Below, piece by piece: positions 17,449 through 23,551 of a stretch of DNA of 64,000 nt (the first letter of the stretch is position 1; every line of letters begins with the position of its first letter). Under the pieces are notes generated by a model. It did not search any database. It worked only from the letters and a program-made list of their open reading frames with translations, and was not told the DNA's origin. The DNA comes from an uncultured Desulfospira sp. Its GTDB lineage: Bacteria; Desulfobacterota; Desulfobacteria; Desulfobacterales; Desulfobacteraceae. The stretch covers positions 1,632,001 to 1,696,000 of the forward strand of contig OY760175.1 of assembly GCA_963663165.1 (NCBI GenBank), given 5' to 3'. Position numbers and translations under genes: made by a program.

Positions 17449-18723
17449 TTAACTCTCCAGACAGATGGTGTTGCCAAAGGGCGGTTTACTGCCGCCGGGA
17501 CCGGCCCCGCCGGGACCTGTCTTTACCCAGAGGACCGGGTATGGGGGCCGGTTTGAAGGAAACAATTTACATTCAAGATCGGTCAGGTAAATCAGGCAGG
17601 CCGGGCTGACCCGCTGATCAGCGATAAACTCAAAGGCCGGGCGAAAATCGGTTCCCCCGCCCCCTTTGGGCTCAAACTTTATGGGCAGGTCCCACTGATT
17701 AAACACCTGATACCGGTTCACGGCCATATCCGTATACAACAGGTGAAGCTTGGACGGGAAACATTCCAGAATGGCAGATAGTTCTGCGGCAAACTGGTCC
17801 AGTTCTTCGGGCAGGACAGACCCTGAGGTATCAAGGGCCACAGCCAGTTCGCTCAACTCATGGGTGTTCAAAGAGGGAAAATAAAGGTTCTGGTGAATAT
17901 ACCGCCGGTTGGGCGTGGTCCAGGAGTAATCCGACCGGGCTGAATTCTGGATAAACCGGGACAAAAGCTGCCGCCACCCCAGTTTGGGATTAATCCTTTC
18001 CTGGACCAGCCGCTCCAGCCCCTTTGGCAGCTTTCCCATGCGCCGGGCATTGGCCGCGGCCTGGACCAGGGCCTGGTCCCAGTCAATGTCCTCATCTTCC
18101 CCGGTTCCCGGCGCATCTTCCAGGTCCCGGACCTCGCCGGCCATGCCCGGATCAGTTCCGGGATCTTCCTGATTTTCATCCTGGCCGGTATTTCCCGGGT
18201 CATCAAGTGGCAACGGGTTTCGGCCCTGTTCGGGATCTGTCTCTTTCAGGGCTTCACTGTTGGGGTCGCCGACTTGCCCACCCCTGTCCTCTTCATTTTT
18301 CTCATCCGCCAGGGTCTGATAAACCGCATCGGCGCTTTTGTTCCGGAACCTGTCATCAAACAAAAACCCGTCGGGCAGGTCCATGCCCGCGTCCAAAAGA
18401 ATGGGATTAACGGCATAATCACAGGCCCGGTTCCACAGATCCTTGTCCCGGCTGCCGCGCCGTATGTGGTGGCCGCAGGCCGGGTGCATGACCGTATGGG
18501 CGCAAAGGCCGATGAGCTTTTGCCTTGGCAGGGTGCTGATGTAAGAAGGGTTATAGGCAAATACCCGGCCGTCGGTCCAGGCGGTGTGGCAGGAAGGGTC
18601 CGGCGTGACCTTTAACCTAAGGGCCAGGGACGCAAAAAACGGCTGGGCCATGACCATGGAAATCCTGGCCCGGACCACCCGGTCATGGGCAGACTGTTCT
18701 ATGGAGGAAAGGGGCTTGATCAT
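17449..18723 (-). CDS. DUF2201-type metallopeptidase-like/VWA domain protein
   Basis: TAWTDG, HTVMH...H, WN.ACDYAVN, acidic linker, MIDAS DTSGS, GGGGTDF, YLTD; ATGA overlap with the AAA gene. Confidence 0.85.
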   Translation of the reverse strand: MIKPLSSIEQSAHDRVVRARISMVMAQPFFASLALRLKVTPDPSCHTAWTDGRVFAYNPSYISTLPRQKLIGLCAHTVMHPACGHHIRRGSRDKDLWNRACDYAVNPILLDAGMDLPDGFLFDDRFRNKSADAVYQTLADEKNEEDRGGQVGDPNSEALKETDPEQGRNPLPLDDPGNTGQDENQEDPGTDPGMAGEVRDLEDAPGTGEDEDIDWDQALVQAAANARRMGKLPKGLERLVQERINPKLGWRQLLSRFIQNSARSDYSWTTPNRRYIHQNLYFPSLNTHELSELAVALDTSGSVLPEELDQFAAELSAILECFPSKLHLLYTDMAVNRYQVFNQWDLPIKFEPKGGGGTDFRPAFEFIADQRVSPACLIYLTDLECKLFPSNRPPYPVLWVKTGPGGAGPGGSKPPFGNTICLES

Positions 18724-19703
18724 ACCAGAACTTGGGCATGGCATGAGGCCCAGTCTGCGAAGGCCGGGGTCCGGACCAGGCCGGCATGTTTACGGACCGC
18801 CTCCCGAACCAGGAGAACGGAAAATTCTACGGGCAGCCGGGATGCCCAGGCCATGACGGGGTCGGCGGTATCTTCTTTAAGGGCATGGCTCATCATTTCG
18901 CACAGGGCAAAGAGGACCGCCGGATCTTTGGGGATCTCAATGCCCTCAGGGTCTTCTATAATATCGGCGGCTTCGGGAAGGCAATGCCAGATTTTTAGAA
19001 ATCCTGAAAACTCTGCGGCAGCGCCCTTGCCCACGGCACCGGCCACCATGGAACCAAGAAGGCCCGGGTCAGGAGCGGCCTTTACCAGCCTTGAGACAAA
19101 TTCCCAGGACCTTGGGGAAGGAAAGGCCCGGTCGTCTTTTTCAGGATCAAAATCGTGGAGCAGGGCGGGCCGGAAACGAATAAAGGCAACGACCTCCGGT
19201 GCAATGGCATTGGCACCGGCCCAGGTGAGCCAGTCCGGCACATCCACCTCAAATTCCAGATGAACAAACCGGTTGGCCAGGGCCGAGGGCATGCGATGGG
19301 AAACGGCCCGGTCCTGCTCCCGGTTGCCGGCAGCGATCACAGACCAGCCTTCAGGGAGCTCATACTCCCCTAACCGGCGGTCAAGGACTAACTGGTAACA
19401 GGCCGCCTGAACCAGGGGAGGCGCCGCGTTCAGTTCATCCAAAAACAGCACCCCCCTGCCCTGCCGGGGAAGAAAGCCCGGGGCGCACCATTGGGAGACC
19501 CCGTCCGGGGTGATCTTAGGGATTCCCCGTAAATCCACAGGGTCCAGGAGAATGGCCCGGATGTCAATGAGGGAGAGGGACAAAGCATCGGCGGTCTGCC
19601 GGACCACCTGGCTCTTTCCAATGCCCGGCGGACCCCAGAGAAACGCGGGCTGCCGGATGTCAAGCAAGGTATTCAGGGCCGTTGAAATTTGGGATGGCTT
19701 CAT
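18720..19703 (-). CDS. MoxR/AAA_5-type AAA+ ATPase
   Basis: GPPGIGKS, LFLDELN, AAGN, ALANRF, SPRSW. Confidence 0.9.
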   Translation of the reverse strand: MKPSQISTALNTLLDIRQPAFLWGPPGIGKSQVVRQTADALSLSLIDIRAILLDPVDLRGIPKITPDGVSQWCAPGFLPRQGRGVLFLDELNAAPPLVQAACYQLVLDRRLGEYELPEGWSVIAAGNREQDRAVSHRMPSALANRFVHLEFEVDVPDWLTWAGANAIAPEVVAFIRFRPALLHDFDPEKDDRAFPSPRSWEFVSRLVKAAPDPGLLGSMVAGAVGKGAAAEFSGFLKIWHCLPEAADIIEDPEGIEIPKDPAVLFALCEMMSHALKEDTADPVMAWASRLPVEFSVLLVREAVRKHAGLVRTPAFADWASCHAQVLV

Positions 19704-19785
19704 GTTTTAAAACATTACTTTTATTATATTAAAATTTTTTAGTTATTCAATTCGTAGATTTGTTAATATTAAAAATACTATTTTT

Positions 19786-19813
19786 TGTCAATCTAAATGT
19801 TAGGGATCTCTAA
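19786..19813 (-). promoter_or_regulatory. -35 TTGACA with upstream palindrome TTAG-GGATCT-CTAA (19800-19813)
   Basis: Read directly upstream of the AAA gene. Confidence 0.65.
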
Positions 19814-19888
19814 CGTAAAATTTTCCTGTATCGGATATGGTTCCCTTGGTTTAAATTGTTTTCTTTGGATTTTGTGGATTCAGGAGTT

Positions 19889-19985
19889 TAATGTATAAAA
19901 TTGGGACTTGGGATATGGGACTTGGGACTTGGGGAGGCCGTGGATGCCGCAATCCCCAGGTCCCATATCCCAAGTCCCAAGTCCA
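19889..19985. repeat. 97-bp GGGACTT/AAGTCCC heptamer palindromic repeat, copy 1
   Basis: Near-identical inverted copy at 34868-34964. Confidence 0.9.
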
Positions 19986-20023
19986 TTTTTTTGGAGATTT
20001 AATTGAATGAATTCCCCCGGCCC

Positions 20024-20179
20024 AAAAGCAGAGAGGCAGCGTCCGCCAACCGGATGCTGCCTCTCTTAAGGCAAAATAAAGTAACATTAAGGAGGTTTTG
20101 CTTAAGCCGCTGTGACCTCAAAGGTGGAATGGCTTTTGAAGTCATCATGGGGTGAGGATGAAAGCAATACCCTTATGGT
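20024..20179 (-). ncRNA. Candidate sRNA (~155 nt)
   Basis: TTGACA-17-TAGAGT promoter (20213-20185), internal hairpin, ACCUCCUUA motif, 16-bp terminal hairpin (20030-20066). Confidence 0.55.
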
Positions 20180-20231
20180 GAGTCACTCTATATTAAAAAA
20201 TACTGCGTGTCAAGGAAAAGTTTTATAAAAC

Positions 20232-20486
20232 TTATTTTTTTATTTCCGTCTCATTTTCAAGTGCTTTCTGCTGCTTTTTGACTCTTTTTTCAGGCTGGTA
20301 CAAGAAGTGATGCCAGAGGGCGGCCCCGGCCAGCAGGGCACCGGCACCGGTGTGGATGTTTTTTAAAGTCCTGGAACGGTTCCCCTTTAAAAACGGAGCC
20401 GTGATGACGGCCACCCCGAGGGAGGCGGTCATGGCAATTTTGGCAATTTCTTTTTTAGTCTCGAGATCGAGCGGCTTTTCTGGCAT
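20232..20486 (-). CDS. Small two-TM membrane protein
   Basis: MPEKPLD...AKIAMTASL...IHTGAG...WHH; His residues in the TM segments. Confidence 0.75.
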   Translation of the reverse strand: MPEKPLDLETKKEIAKIAMTASLGVAVITAPFLKGNRSRTLKNIHTGAGALLAGAALWHHFLYQPEKRVKKQQKALENETEIKK

Positions 20487-20598
20487 TTCTTCGTTTTTTT
20501 CTCTGGATGGTTTTTTTAGTGCCTTTCCCGGTTTCAACAGCAAGGGCACAGGTCAGTACGGTTGCAACCCCACAGACGATAGGAATAAATGGTGCCAT
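20455..20598 (-). CDS. 47-aa hydrophobic/basic peptide (not in ORF track)
   Basis: GGAGG RBS; MAPFIPIVCGVATVLTCALAVETGKGTKKTIQRKKRRNARKAARSRD. Confidence 0.65.
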   Translation of the reverse strand: MAPFIPIVCGVATVLTCALAVETGKGTKKTIQRKKRRNARKAARSRD

Positions 20599-20668
20599 AT
20601 TTCCTCCCAAAATGCAATATCAAGTTCTTCGCCCGAAAAACCCCGGGTCGGATTATTTATTCCCGGCT

Positions 20669-20697
20669 ATATTAGTTTTAACTAAATTAATAGTCAA
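20669..20697 (-). promoter_or_regulatory. Promoter TTGACT-17-TAATAT overlapped by TTAG-TTTTAA-CTAA (20672-20685)
   Basis: Read directly from the sequence. Confidence 0.7.
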
Positions 20698-20864
20698 CTC
20701 TTTATTTTATATAATTTAATTTTATTTATATCATATATATAACTTTTTTAAATATTAACAACAATTCAGGGATACTGAAAGAATAATAAATATGACAGAA
20801 TTGATATATCCACCATACCCTAAAGGGCAGAAACCGGGACGGCTTGGGTTATCCAACCAAGCAC

Positions 20865-20941
20865 CGCCCACAACAAAGCTGTTGTGACAATTCCAGATCT
20901 TTCCGCAACGCATCAGATGGGTGGCTTTCCGTCCAAACACC
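20865..20941. repeat. Degenerate right half of the 33490-33614 element
   Basis: gcaacgcatcagatgggtggctttccgtccaaacac matches gcaacgcagcagatggatggcttttcgttcaaacac. Confidence 0.7.
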
Positions 20942-20945
20942 GCAT

Positions 20946-20990
20946 AAAAAAGCAGACCCGCCATGGATCAAAGTCCATGGCGGGTCTGCT
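20946..20990 (-). terminator. Rho-independent terminator of feoAB
   Basis: Perfect stem gcagacccgccatgga / tccatggcgggtctgc followed by U6 on the minus strand. Confidence 0.9.
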
Positions 20991-21019
20991 GCCGGTCAAT
21001 ATTGTTTTTGGCGGTTGGG

Positions 21020-23551
21020 TTACCGGGTACTTAACTCCGGCATTCCTTCGGAAGGCTCAATGGCCTGGGGCCTGGGTTTAAAGAGCCCCACCACAATGGT
21101 AAGAATCACCACAAAGCAGTAGAATGCGGCCATCATCTGAATTCCGGTAAGCCCCAAAAGGTTTCCGCCGGTAAAAATGACGGATGCCGTGATAAAGCCC
21201 AGAAGCGTGGGAAATATAACAGAAAAGAGCATCCACTTGTATGATCCGGTCTGGACCTTAATCATGATGGTGGTGGCCAGACACGGCGGGTACATGGCAA
21301 AAAAGATCATGATGGCCAGGGCATGGAGGGGAGAAAAATCCGTTTCCCCGGCTTCGGCCCCCATCCGCTCTTCAAGGCTCTTATTTTCATCAGCCCCCTG
21401 CTGGTACAGCACACCAATGGTGGCGACACTGGACTCCCGGGCGGCAAAAGACGACAGGATGGCCACGTTGACTTTCCAGGAGAACCCGGCCCACTGGGTC
21501 AAGGGCTCCAGAGACCGTCCGATCTTCCCCATAAAGCTGGTCCGGATCTGTTCTTCCTTGATCTCCCGGCGCAGGGATTTTCGGGTGGATACCACATCTC
21601 TTAATGCCTTGTTGACTTTTTTGGCGTCCTTGTCCCCTTTGGGCTTTAAAAATTTAAAAAGATCCGGGTAGTTTTTCTCAAACCTTTCATCCAGGGCTTT
21701 TGCGGCATCTGCACCCGAAGCGGTCAGCCGGGCGGTTTTAAAGTCGTCATAGGCATTGATCAGGGATAGAAGCGTTGTGTCATCACCACTGAACTGACCG
21801 GCATAGGCAGTGGATTGAATTTTTTTGTGGAAACCGGTCACGGCCTGGTCCATTTGGGTCTGAAAATCAGCTTCCCGGTCATCGGTGAGGCCTGGAAACT
21901 GCAAAAGCGTAAACACACAGACCGAAACGGCCACCACAATAGAGCCGACCTTTTTGATATACTGCCAGGTCCGCTCAATGGCCCGCTGCCCCACCCCGAA
22001 AATGGTGGGGGGATGGTATTTGGGCAGTTCCATGACAAAGGGCGCGGTTTCCATGGTTTTAAGGACAGTGGATGTAAGCAGCCGTGCCACCAGAAGGGCC
22101 ACAAAAATGGTAAAGGTGGACAAAAAGAGCATAACCCAGGATTTATAGGGCACAAAAAACACATTGATGAGCAGGGTATAAAAGGGAATCTTGGCCAGGC
22201 AGTTCATATAGGGAACCGTTAAAATGGTAGCCATCCGGGAGCGTTCATCGGGAATCCCCTTGGTGGACATGACCCCGGGCACCGCACACCCGCCGGCAAA
22301 TACCCCGCCCAGAATATACGGCAGGGTGGACTGGCCATGCAGTCCGAATGAGTGGAACAGCCGGTCCAGGACAAAGGCGATCCGGGCCATGTACCCCGAG
22401 TCTTCCAAGATAGCAATCAAAGAAAATAAAATTAAAAAGATGGGAATATAGTTGAGCAGGGCATTGGCCGAGTCAACCATCCAAAGGCCCATGGACCGGA
22501 TATAAGGATCGTGGAGCATGCCGGCATCGGGCAGGACCCCGGCGATGATTTCCCTTATTTTGGCCAGTACCGGCCACCAGTACTGGGTTAATTCATACCC
22601 TTTGACAATGGAGAGCTGGTAGATAATAAACACCGAGGCCACCAGGAAAACCGGGGCGGCAAACCGGTTTAAAACCACCTTGTCGATCATCTCGGTGATC
22701 CTGTCCTTGCCGTCATGTTCTTCGGTGACGCAGGATTCGATGATGGAGGTGGCCAGACGGTCCCGGCACCCCACCATGTAATCGGCCACGTTCATGTAGT
22801 GGTCCTGTTCAAACTGTTCCCGGATCTCTTTGGCCGACTTGAGGATTTCATGGTCTTGACCGAATCTCTCACCAACAACCTTCCAGGCTTCGGAATCGCC
22901 TTCAATGAGCTTAACGGCCAGCCACCGGCCCGGATAGGTTTTGACAAGGTCGGTGGCGTCGATGATTCCCTGGAGGGCCGCGACCTTGGGCTCCAGGTCT
23001 TCGTAAGCGATATGGAGGGTGTTGTGTTCCCGGCGCCGGGAGGTTTCCAGAATAGCATCCCGAAGTTCGTTTTTACCTTTTCGTTTACGGCCCACCGTGG
23101 GAATCACATTGACGCCCAGGCGGTGTTCAAGCTTTTCCACATCAATGCGGGTCCCGTTTCGCTTGGCCACATCCATCATATTAAGGGCCACGACCACGGG
23201 AAAACCCATTTCCATGACCTGAAAGGTAAAATAAAGGCTTCTTTTCAAGGAGGAGGCATCCACCACATTGGCGATGACATCGGGTTTTTCCAGAATTAAA
23301 AAATCCCGGGCCACCCGTTCTTCAAGGGAAAAAGAGGTCAGGCTGTAGGTTCCGGGAAGGTCCACGACCTCCACCCGGACATCCTTGTACCGGTAGACCC
23401 CGGACTTTTTGTCCACCGTGACCCCGGGATAGTTGGCAATGTGCTGGTTGGCACCGGTAAGCATGTTAAAGGTGGTGGATTTACCAGCGTTCTGCTGGCC
23501 GGCCAGGCCGATGAGCAGACGGGTTCTTTCAGATTCAGATGATTCTGTCAT
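21020..23551 (-). CDS. feoB: Ferrous iron transporter B
   Basis: GQQNAGKS, NYPGVTV, DLPGTYSL, NMMD, LEDSGYMAR, Gate cysteines. Confidence 0.97.
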   Translation of the reverse strand: MTESSESERTRLLIGLAGQQNAGKSTTFNMLTGANQHIANYPGVTVDKKSGVYRYKDVRVEVVDLPGTYSLTSFSLEERVARDFLILEKPDVIANVVDASSLKRSLYFTFQVMEMGFPVVVALNMMDVAKRNGTRIDVEKLEHRLGVNVIPTVGRKRKGKNELRDAILETSRRREHNTLHIAYEDLEPKVAALQGIIDATDLVKTYPGRWLAVKLIEGDSEAWKVVGERFGQDHEILKSAKEIREQFEQDHYMNVADYMVGCRDRLATSIIESCVTEEHDGKDRITEMIDKVVLNRFAAPVFLVASVFIIYQLSIVKGYELTQYWWPVLAKIREIIAGVLPDAGMLHDPYIRSMGLWMVDSANALLNYIPIFLILFSLIAILEDSGYMARIAFVLDRLFHSFGLHGQSTLPYILGGVFAGGCAVPGVMSTKGIPDERSRMATILTVPYMNCLAKIPFYTLLINVFFVPYKSWVMLFLSTFTIFVALLVARLLTSTVLKTMETAPFVMELPKYHPPTIFGVGQRAIERTWQYIKKVGSIVVAVSVCVFTLLQFPGLTDDREADFQTQMDQAVTGFHKKIQSTAYAGQFSGDDTTLLSLINAYDDFKTARLTASGADAAKALDERFEKNYPDLFKFLKPKGDKDAKKVNKALRDVVSTRKSLRREIKEEQIRTSFMGKIGRSLEPLTQWAGFSWKVNVAILSSFAARESSVATIGVLYQQGADENKSLEERMGAEAGETDFSPLHALAIMIFFAMYPPCLATTIMIKVQTGSYKWMLFSVIFPTLLGFITASVIFTGGNLLGLTGIQMMAAFYCFVVILTIVVGLFKPRPQAIEPSEGMPELSTR

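Follow-up and report, generated by a model that had tools for sequence, protein, structure and literature searches.

A candidate small regulatory RNA gene behind feoAB in Desulfospira and its probable origin from a small peptide gene

The 64,000-nucleotide (nt) stretch of DNA analysed here, called the window throughout, comes from an uncultured Desulfospira species (GenBank assembly GCA_963663165.1, contig OY760175.1, positions 1,632,001 to 1,696,000), and all simple coordinates below are positions within it. On its minus strand, behind feoAB and two fezA-like genes, lies an element of about 155 nt which we read as a small-RNA gene with its own sigma-70 promoter and terminator, specifying a probable non-coding, Hfq-independent riboregulator; we put the probability of this reading at roughly 0.55. 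Judged from its sequence and its relatives, the locus is a real and conserved small-RNA gene of the Desulfobacteraceae, and the copy in the window is most likely a non-coding riboregulator, because a peptide-coding open reading frame (ORF) has been truncated in it while the promoter, a motif resembling the end of 16S rRNA and the terminator were kept. The RNA family appears to be undescribed and was found here only within the window's GTDB family; among abstracts in the literature, no description of a regulatory RNA of this kind in the Desulfobacteraceae was found. An initial annotation of this DNA had proposed an iron-linked small RNA (sRNA) with an anti-Shine-Dalgarno (anti-SD) motif; the comparisons below point to the derivation of the RNA from a small peptide gene, which that annotation overlooked.

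The minus-strand features that the initial annotation had listed, namely the promoter TTGACA-17-TAGAGT, a 5' hairpin, the sequence ACCUCCUUA, a terminator with a short U tail and a frame of 49 amino acids (aa) without a ribosome-binding site (RBS), are all present (Table 1). The -35 hexamer (20213-20208) and the -10 hexamer (20190-20185) are separated by a 17-nt spacer, and this promoter ranks top in a scan of positions 18500-21500. The 161-nt RNA has a predicted folding energy of -54.8 kcal/mol (z = -3.76), equalled by only one of 200 dinucleotide shuffles, and its predicted fold consists of the 5' hairpin, a long-range stem closing on the first CC of the CCUCC motif, in which GGGU.UUGCUU pairs with AAGCAA.ACCU, and the terminator, which is a long G+C-rich hairpin (20066-20030) followed by the short U tail. 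One U-G pair in the 5' hairpin becomes an A-C mismatch if the plus strand is read, as had been claimed. The sequence ACCUCCUUA (20096-20088) had been described as mimicking the 3' end of 16S rRNA; the mimicry is present but is 8 nt long (ACCUCCUU) and not 9, because the 16S rRNA of this genome ends in ...GGAUCACCUCCUUUC. Counting both strands, the 6.74-Mb genome contains ACCTCCTTA only 27 times, and TATTTTGCC, in the A/U-rich stretch before the terminator, is invariant in an alignment of eight sequences and nearly so among 30. The fold and motif features at the locus exceed chance. As far as alignment can tell, this RNA is built like a base-pairing sRNA, with a 5' hairpin that varies, a seed that is conserved and a terminator.

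Table 1. Features of the candidate RNA gene and of the ORFs that precede it in the window
Feature	Positions	Strand	Basis
Predicted transcript, ~155 nt	20022..20178	-	start inferred from the -10 hexamer, end from the terminator
5' hairpin UGACUUCAAAAG/CUUUGAGGUCA, 10-11 bp, loop CCAUUCCAC	20113..20144	-	reading and fold
Anti-SD-like block AACCUCCUUAAU	20086..20097	-	sequence and 16S comparison
A/U-rich block UUUAUUUUGC(C), just 5' of the terminator	20071..20080	-	alignment
Intrinsic terminator, 15-16-bp stem then GCUUUUGG	20022..20066	-	scan and fold
A/T-rich promoter-upstream element	20218..20240	-	sequence reading and alignment to family architecture
Sigma-70-type promoter TTGACA-17-TAGAGT	20185..20213	-	promoter scan, 10/12 matches
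21-codon remnant (TTG...TAA) of the family's 45-49-aa peptide ORF	20102..20167	-	in-frame stop alignment
Small membrane-protein ORFs, outside the RNA: 47 aa (20455-20598) and 84 aa (20232-20486)	20232..20598	-	ORF scan

The nearest relatives show strong conservation of this unit. Three Desulfospira genomes were compared: the window's own (G000; 96.7% complete) and two others (G001 and G002). Between G000 and G001 the element is 95% identical, compared with 91.5% for the region 20022-20814 and 88.8% for the 3' part of feoB, and a run of 79 nt (20070-20148) carries no substitution, for which the chance is 1e-4 to 9e-4 at 8.5-11% divergence. The single G001 substitution in the terminator stem turns an A-U into a G-U pair on the minus strand and gives a C-A mismatch on the plus strand, and the minus strand is favoured since only there is the change compatible with pairing. 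A low-depth contig from marine sediment shows 5 differences over 147 positions of the element, and a second sediment contig, also of low depth and possibly from a different organism, shows 22 over 212 positions of the 84-aa ORF; the contigs compared at the locus are from DNA or of unrecorded kind. The three Desulfospira copies have little in common beyond the anti-SD block, the A/U-rich stretch and the terminator. A BLAST-type search of 41 relatives matched only G001, blastn-short and nhmmer did not find the element at 20 loci with homologues of the 84-aa ORF, and an exact 23-mer of the element had no match in a metagenome collection.

Covariance models reach further. Model R1, built from G000 and G001 alone, gave weak matches in other genera of the Desulfobacteraceae (G408 at E = 2.5e-5) that share the blocks ACCCUCCUUAAU and UAUUUUGCCUC and the terminator. 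At E <= 0.01, model R2, built from eight sequences, matched 62 of the family's 151 genomes, with G002 at E = 7e-11; the stronger matches were the ones examined. The 30 best R2 loci were aligned and two of them set aside, one a paralogous peptide gene (L077) and the other a non-member (L078); family counts given here refer to the remaining 28. These come from at least nine genera of the Desulfobacteraceae, including Desulfobacter, Desulfobacula and Desulfospira, and have the same promoter architecture, the (A/C)CCUCCUUAAU block and UAUUUUGCC in common, together with a terminator in which compensatory changes occur, the anti-SD-like motif being the best-conserved unpaired block of the RNA. A trans-acting sRNA is generally expected to have its own promoter and terminator, conserved in relatives; here both are conserved, the promoter architecture in 28 of 30 loci, and the earlier view of the locus as a small minus-strand RNA with an independent promoter and a terminator at its end looks sound. 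Two of the checks proposed with that view concern conservation and known families. The search for conservation and covariation returned homologues in other genera and a terminator in which 9 of 13 stem pairs have changed on both sides, a score that none of 500 shuffles reached; it is the only clean covariation signal, helix 2 (GCAGGAUA with UAUUUUGC) being nearly invariant. The Rfam search matched no family at gathering thresholds, in the window or in 13 homologous loci, and in E-value mode over 19600-20700 it gave mostly microRNA (miRNA)-type matches on a repeat hairpin with a few weak ones over the element, none of these plausible below threshold and none to an iron sRNA family. An exact-pattern scan with one genome per species gave 13 loci, 10 of them labelled Desulfobacter, Desulfobacula, Desulfobacteraceae or Desulfobacterales. 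Homologues outside the family were rejected on the three best R2 matches there, to which this verdict applies: they consist of hairpin and terminator only, the middle block being absent.

The promoter belongs to the family as well. An architecture AAAAAGTTAG-N8-AAACTTTTT-nn-TTGACA with a conserved spacer is found in 28 of the 30 aligned loci. In the window, a palindrome AAGTTTTATAAAACTT (20233-20218) ends 4 nt before the -35 hexamer, and the upstream sequence of G000 aligns with the family element AAAAAGTTAG-N8-AAACTTTTT, so the palindrome is partly a family-wide feature; non-iron contexts have the element too. The initial annotation had placed the palindrome correctly, just upstream of the -35, but had regarded it as an operator shared by the promoters of this genomic island. 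This part was rejected: the palindrome has no second copy in G000 at up to one mismatch, and the best shared 16-mers among five island promoter regions (12-15 of 16 positions, against 13-14 for the best shuffles) show no clear excess. The A/T-rich element may instead be an UP element, since a similar AAACTTTTTTA-TTGACA lies 5' of a tRNA gene and rRNA promoters carry A-tracts at the equivalent position. In G001 the -35 hexamer is the same as in the window and the -10 hexamer is TAGGGT. The core promoter of G000 and G001 differs from the ATGnnCAT-type spacer of the family, a difference that could be local rewiring or A/T-rich chance.

The relatives also reveal where the RNA probably came from. 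The transcript of 11 of the 28 loci contains an ORF with a good RBS for a conserved acidic Cys/His peptide of 45-49 aa (consensus MSEY....NYIESDEEREAGHVDTRHLNFECETFDSIGCDTGVDVAG), and the anti-SD motif lies in its 3' untranslated region (UTR), where the order is (A/C)CCUCCUUAAU, UAUUUUGCC, terminator. The ratio of nonsynonymous to synonymous differences (pN/pS) of the peptide is 0.38, with pN < pS in 35 of 36 pairs, in a set of nine ORFs comprising eight of type A and the type-B copy L077; the 11 intact ORFs are of type A. The peptide family has no Pfam or NCBIfam match and no usable ESM Atlas hit, and a large protein collection holds 27 clusters of it that are called "hypothetical" wherever named. 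Paralogous copies occur elsewhere in these genomes: G002 has four, tandem pairs are found there and in G395, and G000 carries an intact 47-aa type-B paralogue ...NFECDHPDKHLGCDPGIDVAG with its own terminator at G000:C1:3143544-3143687 (L126 4545-4688, plus strand).

At the other 17 loci, the window included, this ORF has been shortened or interrupted, whereas promoter, motif and terminator are still there. The distance from the promoter to the C-terminal remnant is 30-84 nt in 15 of these 17, compared with 176-204 nt in the forms with an ORF, and in the two remaining ones, which are long forms, a frameshift or an in-frame TGA interrupts the reading frame. The ORF-less loci are spread over six genera, and three genera (g3, g11 and g13) hold intact and ORF-less forms side by side, so loss of the ORF looks recurrent. 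The motif CCUCCUUAA stands at its position in 17 of the 28 loci, being kept in 13 of the 17 without and 4 of the 11 with an intact ORF (Fisher p = 0.053, the loci being kin and not independent); in two ORF-intact loci that were counted as positive, the nonamer is found only at the base of the terminator. In the window, the 49-aa frame (19999-20148) had been given as the sole ORF. It has no RBS, as stated, being preceded by UCAUCCUCACCCC without an SD sequence, but a 21-codon TTG frame is also present and is the remnant of the conserved peptide gene, its stop aligning in frame with the TAG or TAA of the relatives. The only SD-like sequence of this remnant is UAAGGG, 2 nt from the TTG, neither conserved Cys is kept, and the frame is probably not translated. 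A selected peptide ORF on the same transcript is thus a property of 11 relatives and not of the window copy. The region matching the 5' hairpin is in relatives the C-terminal coding part of the ORF, which likewise forms a hairpin; the C-rich loop of this hairpin, listed earlier as a feature, is not conserved beyond G000 and G001. As a separate observation, at locus L053 (G379) the codon for the second conserved Cys of the remnant is TGA (GGA TGA ACC) and the frame continues past it up to a TAA inside CCTCCTTAA, which may be decay of a non-coding remnant or a Cys/selenocysteine exchange.

From these comparisons we infer the following course and mode of action. The full-form ancestor would have been a transcript for a 45-49-aa Cys/His peptide with a conserved 3' UTR, whose ORF would then have been truncated or broken in the window and at 16 other loci with promoter, 16S-like motif and terminator kept. 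In the most plausible mechanism, the largely unpaired ACCUCCUUAAU would pair with RBSs of the AUUAAGGAGG(U) type on other mRNAs, and this pairing would block translation initiation with no need of Hfq. In two Desulfospira genomes the gene would have left its usual site next to a DUF2231-DOMON operon for one directly behind feoAB and two fezA-like genes, where read-through would also make the RNA the 3' end of the operon mRNA. No Hfq gene was found in the 96.7%-complete genome, and for this reason an Hfq-binding module was rejected. In G000, 34 ORFs carry UUAAGGAGG at RBS distance, and a [FeFe]-hydrogenase, an HgdD-type dehydratase and a glycogen-debranching enzyme are among the top ORFs for longest RBS complementarity; RNAduplex with a 45-nt region gave uninformative long duplexes. 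Around G000:C1 3096210-3096270, 5' of the [FeFe]-hydrogenase gene, there are GCTAAC(C/A)G heptamer-like repeats (coordinates approximate), which are also in G001 and not in G002.

Several points weigh against this interpretation. The sequencing runs that carry the locus include no RNA run, so that transcription, transcript ends and abundance are predictions, the ends from the -10 hexamer and the terminator. In predicted ensembles the motif is only partly exposed, with a mean unpaired probability of 0.44 in G000 and 0.40-0.89 in other short forms, and in several short forms a 5' AAGG-type sequence is predicted to pair with the anti-SD seed. The motif has decayed in 11 of 28 loci and is thus no universal requirement of the family. 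G000 and G001 offer little divergence to judge by, and the promoter region of the upstream ORFs is highly conserved in G001 as well. Helix 1 covaries at 6 of 8 pairs, a count that may reflect codon wobble because the region is coding in relatives, and the alignment behind all pair counts was fitted to the covariance model. As to targets, none of the complementary ORFs is supported: the [FeFe]-hydrogenase was rejected as a conserved target, its 13-nt RBS match in G000 and G001 being lost in G002, and so was the start region of DUF2231, for which 18 of 19 loci lie at z above -2 and show no preference.

Among known systems, the closest in design seem to be IsrR, FsrA, RoxS and RsaE of the Firmicutes, which are likewise short, have their own promoter and terminator, carry an unpaired C-rich anti-SD-like block and act independently of Hfq, as would the window RNA in a genome with no Hfq gene found. 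The likeness to C-rich, SD-blocking sRNAs that had been suggested at the outset is therefore reasonable as to mechanism, but its iron link is not supported. The window RNA differs from these four in having no Rfam match, in belonging to another phylum, in its origin from a peptide gene, in having no Fur box found, and in carrying one long 16S-identical block and not several CCC/UCCC loops. Dual-function sRNAs are known in SgrS/SgrT, RNAIII/hld and SR1/SR1P, and like these, 11 family loci carry a selected peptide ORF together with a conserved non-coding block; in the window, unlike in that type, the ORF is lost, the role of the RNA part is putative, and both forms stand side by side in three genera. 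The sRNAs derived from 3' UTRs (DapZ, MicL, CpxQ type) are Hfq-dependent and have known targets. They are similar in that the conserved block and terminator are the 3' UTR of a coding gene in relatives and in that the window RNA lies in the 3' region of an upstream operon with an internal promoter, but the short forms here apparently arose through loss of the coding part and not through processing or a promoter inside an intact gene.

The family would thus offer a natural series, with and without the peptide ORF, for the transition from a small protein gene to a riboregulator, and the window RNA is a conserved and readily testable candidate, with a strong promoter, a seed identical to the anti-SD of the ribosome and no Hfq found. 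A bolder version, which we consider rather doubtful, is that the RNA family started out as mRNA for a 47-aa Cys/His peptide and lost the ORF repeatedly, in no fewer than three genera where ORF-bearing members survive, leaving a pure riboregulator with a literal copy of the 16S anti-SD sequence as its seed, and that its transplantation in Desulfospira to a place behind feoAB and the fezA-like ferrosome genes couples global SD occlusion to iron uptake and storage. Should the position in Desulfospira prove functional, the RNA would be the first regulator acting at the RNA level to be connected with feo and ferrosome (fez) genes.

The strongest of the other explanations, although unlikely, is that the element is no separate RNA and serves as the 3' UTR and terminator of the small-ORF operon downstream of feoB, as an mRNA end or stability element that perhaps folds back on the operon's own RBS. 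Upstream on the same strand are genes for a GGDEF/EAL response regulator, feoA and feoB with a strong terminator, and 3' of feoB there follow a promoter (20697-20669) and the two overlapping small membrane-protein ORFs. No terminator was found after the stop of the 84-aa ORF, between these ORFs and the RNA promoter, so read-through would make the RNA part of the 3' end of the operon; the promoter-upstream palindrome overlaps this TAA stop (20234-20232), and synteny of G000 with G001 spans feoB through the element and ends right after the terminator at 20022. Against this stands the fact that the promoter-motif-terminator unit occurs alone at 26 other loci, where the genes upstream are unrelated and the unit is usually divergent from DUF2231, that homologues of the 84-aa ORF elsewhere directly precede an ATPase gene without the element, and that pairing of the motif with the GGGAGGAAAU RBS of the 47-aa ORF would extend over only ~6 bp. 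Two other roles on this spot were also rejected. The element is not a leader or riboswitch of the downstream AAA gene, because the gene order shared with G001 stops right behind the terminator, and the genes that follow the element vary within the family and are often convergent; a plus-strand gene using TAAGGAGGT as its SD has no start codon at usable distance, and a 38-codon GTG frame is reduced to 12 codons in G001.

Somewhat less probable again is a decaying pseudogene of the small peptide gene, brought in by rearrangement and without function of its own. Its ORF, down to 21 codons with no usable RBS, the intact peptide paralogue elsewhere in G000 and the repeat-rich surroundings (REP-like repeat at 19880-20008, high-copy repeat at 20803-20893) would all suit such a fate. 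Decay alone sits poorly with an element that is better conserved than its flanking coding DNA in G001 and in the sediment contig, with the retention of promoter, motif and terminator at 17 ORF-less loci of six genera, and with a motif kept more often where the ORF was lost.

The original proposal, an iron-sparing sRNA repressed by Fur or another iron regulator and silencing iron-protein mRNAs through the anti-SD motif, now appears improbable. It has in its favour that the element adjoins feoAB and fezA-like genes in G000 and G001, that the 20 ORFs picked for RBS complementarity include a [FeFe]-hydrogenase, an HgdD-type dehydratase, a TonB-dependent receptor, a rubrerythrin and an Fe-ADH, and that the spacer motif GTATTTTT(T)AATA (13-14 nt), rare genome-wide, is found again 425 nt downstream, in the promoter of the AAA/VWA/P1B-ATPase cluster. 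The label "feo/fez island" was reasonable in itself, as feoAB and fezA-like ORFs lie upstream and a P1B-type ATPase downstream. The iron-linked role fares less well: the usual neighbour of the family is DUF2231-DOMON (20 of 28 loci), feoAB and fezA-like neighbours are limited to G000 and G001 (2 of 28), the G002 copy lies between a MarR gene and an ArsR-methyltransferase gene, and the family context is not demonstrably iron-related. The five iron-related candidates among 20 do not demonstrate enrichment because Fe-S proteins are common in sulfate reducers, and the hydrogenase match, which is the one checked in G002, is not conserved there. Against the 19-nt consensus of an E. coli-type Fur box, from which the motif of the host lineage may differ, no promoter site scores above 11 of 19, and the highest score anywhere in the window, 14 of 19, falls inside a gene; no operator shared beyond shuffles was seen. 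The models of RyhB, PrrF, FsrA and IsrR gave no match (cmscan, gathering thresholds), and the conserved association of these RNAs with iron homeostasis has its counterpart at only 2 of 28 loci. The iron link is weak, drawn as it is from position in two genomes. Separately, AGTATTTTT(T)AATAT stands between TTGACA and the -10 region in the candidate promoter (20190-20204) and in that of the AAA/VWA/P1B-ATPase cluster (19766-19779), its 12-13-mers occurring 2-3 times in the genome.

Least likely of all is a functional micro-protein made from either the TTG frame (21 aa) or the ATG frame (49 aa), for although the shorter frame is in register with the conserved peptide, ends at its aligned stop and shows two substitutions in G001 of which one is synonymous and one changes His to Tyr, it has no adequately spaced SD and retains little of the peptide and neither Cys, and the 49-aa frame, whose translation had been named as a possible refutation, is not favoured either, as it has no SD, is frameshifted in G001 by a 1-nt indel at 20067/20068 and runs through the terminator stem.

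In the window the 47-aa ORF encodes one transmembrane helix and a very basic tail. The 84-aa ORF has homologues in 20 of 301 genomes of the order, with an E1-E2 ATPase directly 3' in 12 of 18 loci scanned, six of these ATPases matching HMA_2. This gene order matches the fezA-fezB arrangement reported for ferrosome clusters (10.1101/2020.01.10.902569). Downstream of the RNA are a repeat of the repetitive extragenic palindromic (REP) kind, a second promoter, an AAA ATPase, a DUF2201/VWA protein, two unassigned genes and the P1B-type ATPase, which has a weak HMA_2 match. The repeat (19880-20008) is a REP-like or miniature inverted-repeat transposable element-like palindrome of ~110 nt (GGACTTGGGACTTGGGATATGGGA...) with ~17 copies in G000 and ~16 in G001, and it attracts spurious Rfam miRNA matches. 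Between the feoB terminator and the small-ORF promoter, positions 20803-20893 show extreme contig depth in DNA runs (up to ~3e5 summed word depth) with many loose ends, which indicates a high-copy repeat, and G001 has insertions around it.

At the usual site the RNA gene is divergent from the DUF2231-DOMON operon, and downstream of it lie YqeC-XdhC or a convergent thioesterase-ETF pair. All three Desulfospira genomes have the DUF2231-DOMON site, and the RNA is absent there. The operon, divergent from the RNA in most genera, is preceded by a conserved CTTGACTTG promoter; its 5' UTR (~100-200 nt) contains conserved blocks, and its RBS reads AAAGGUGAU. These features were seen in L038, L039, L042, L044, L045 and L079-L081.

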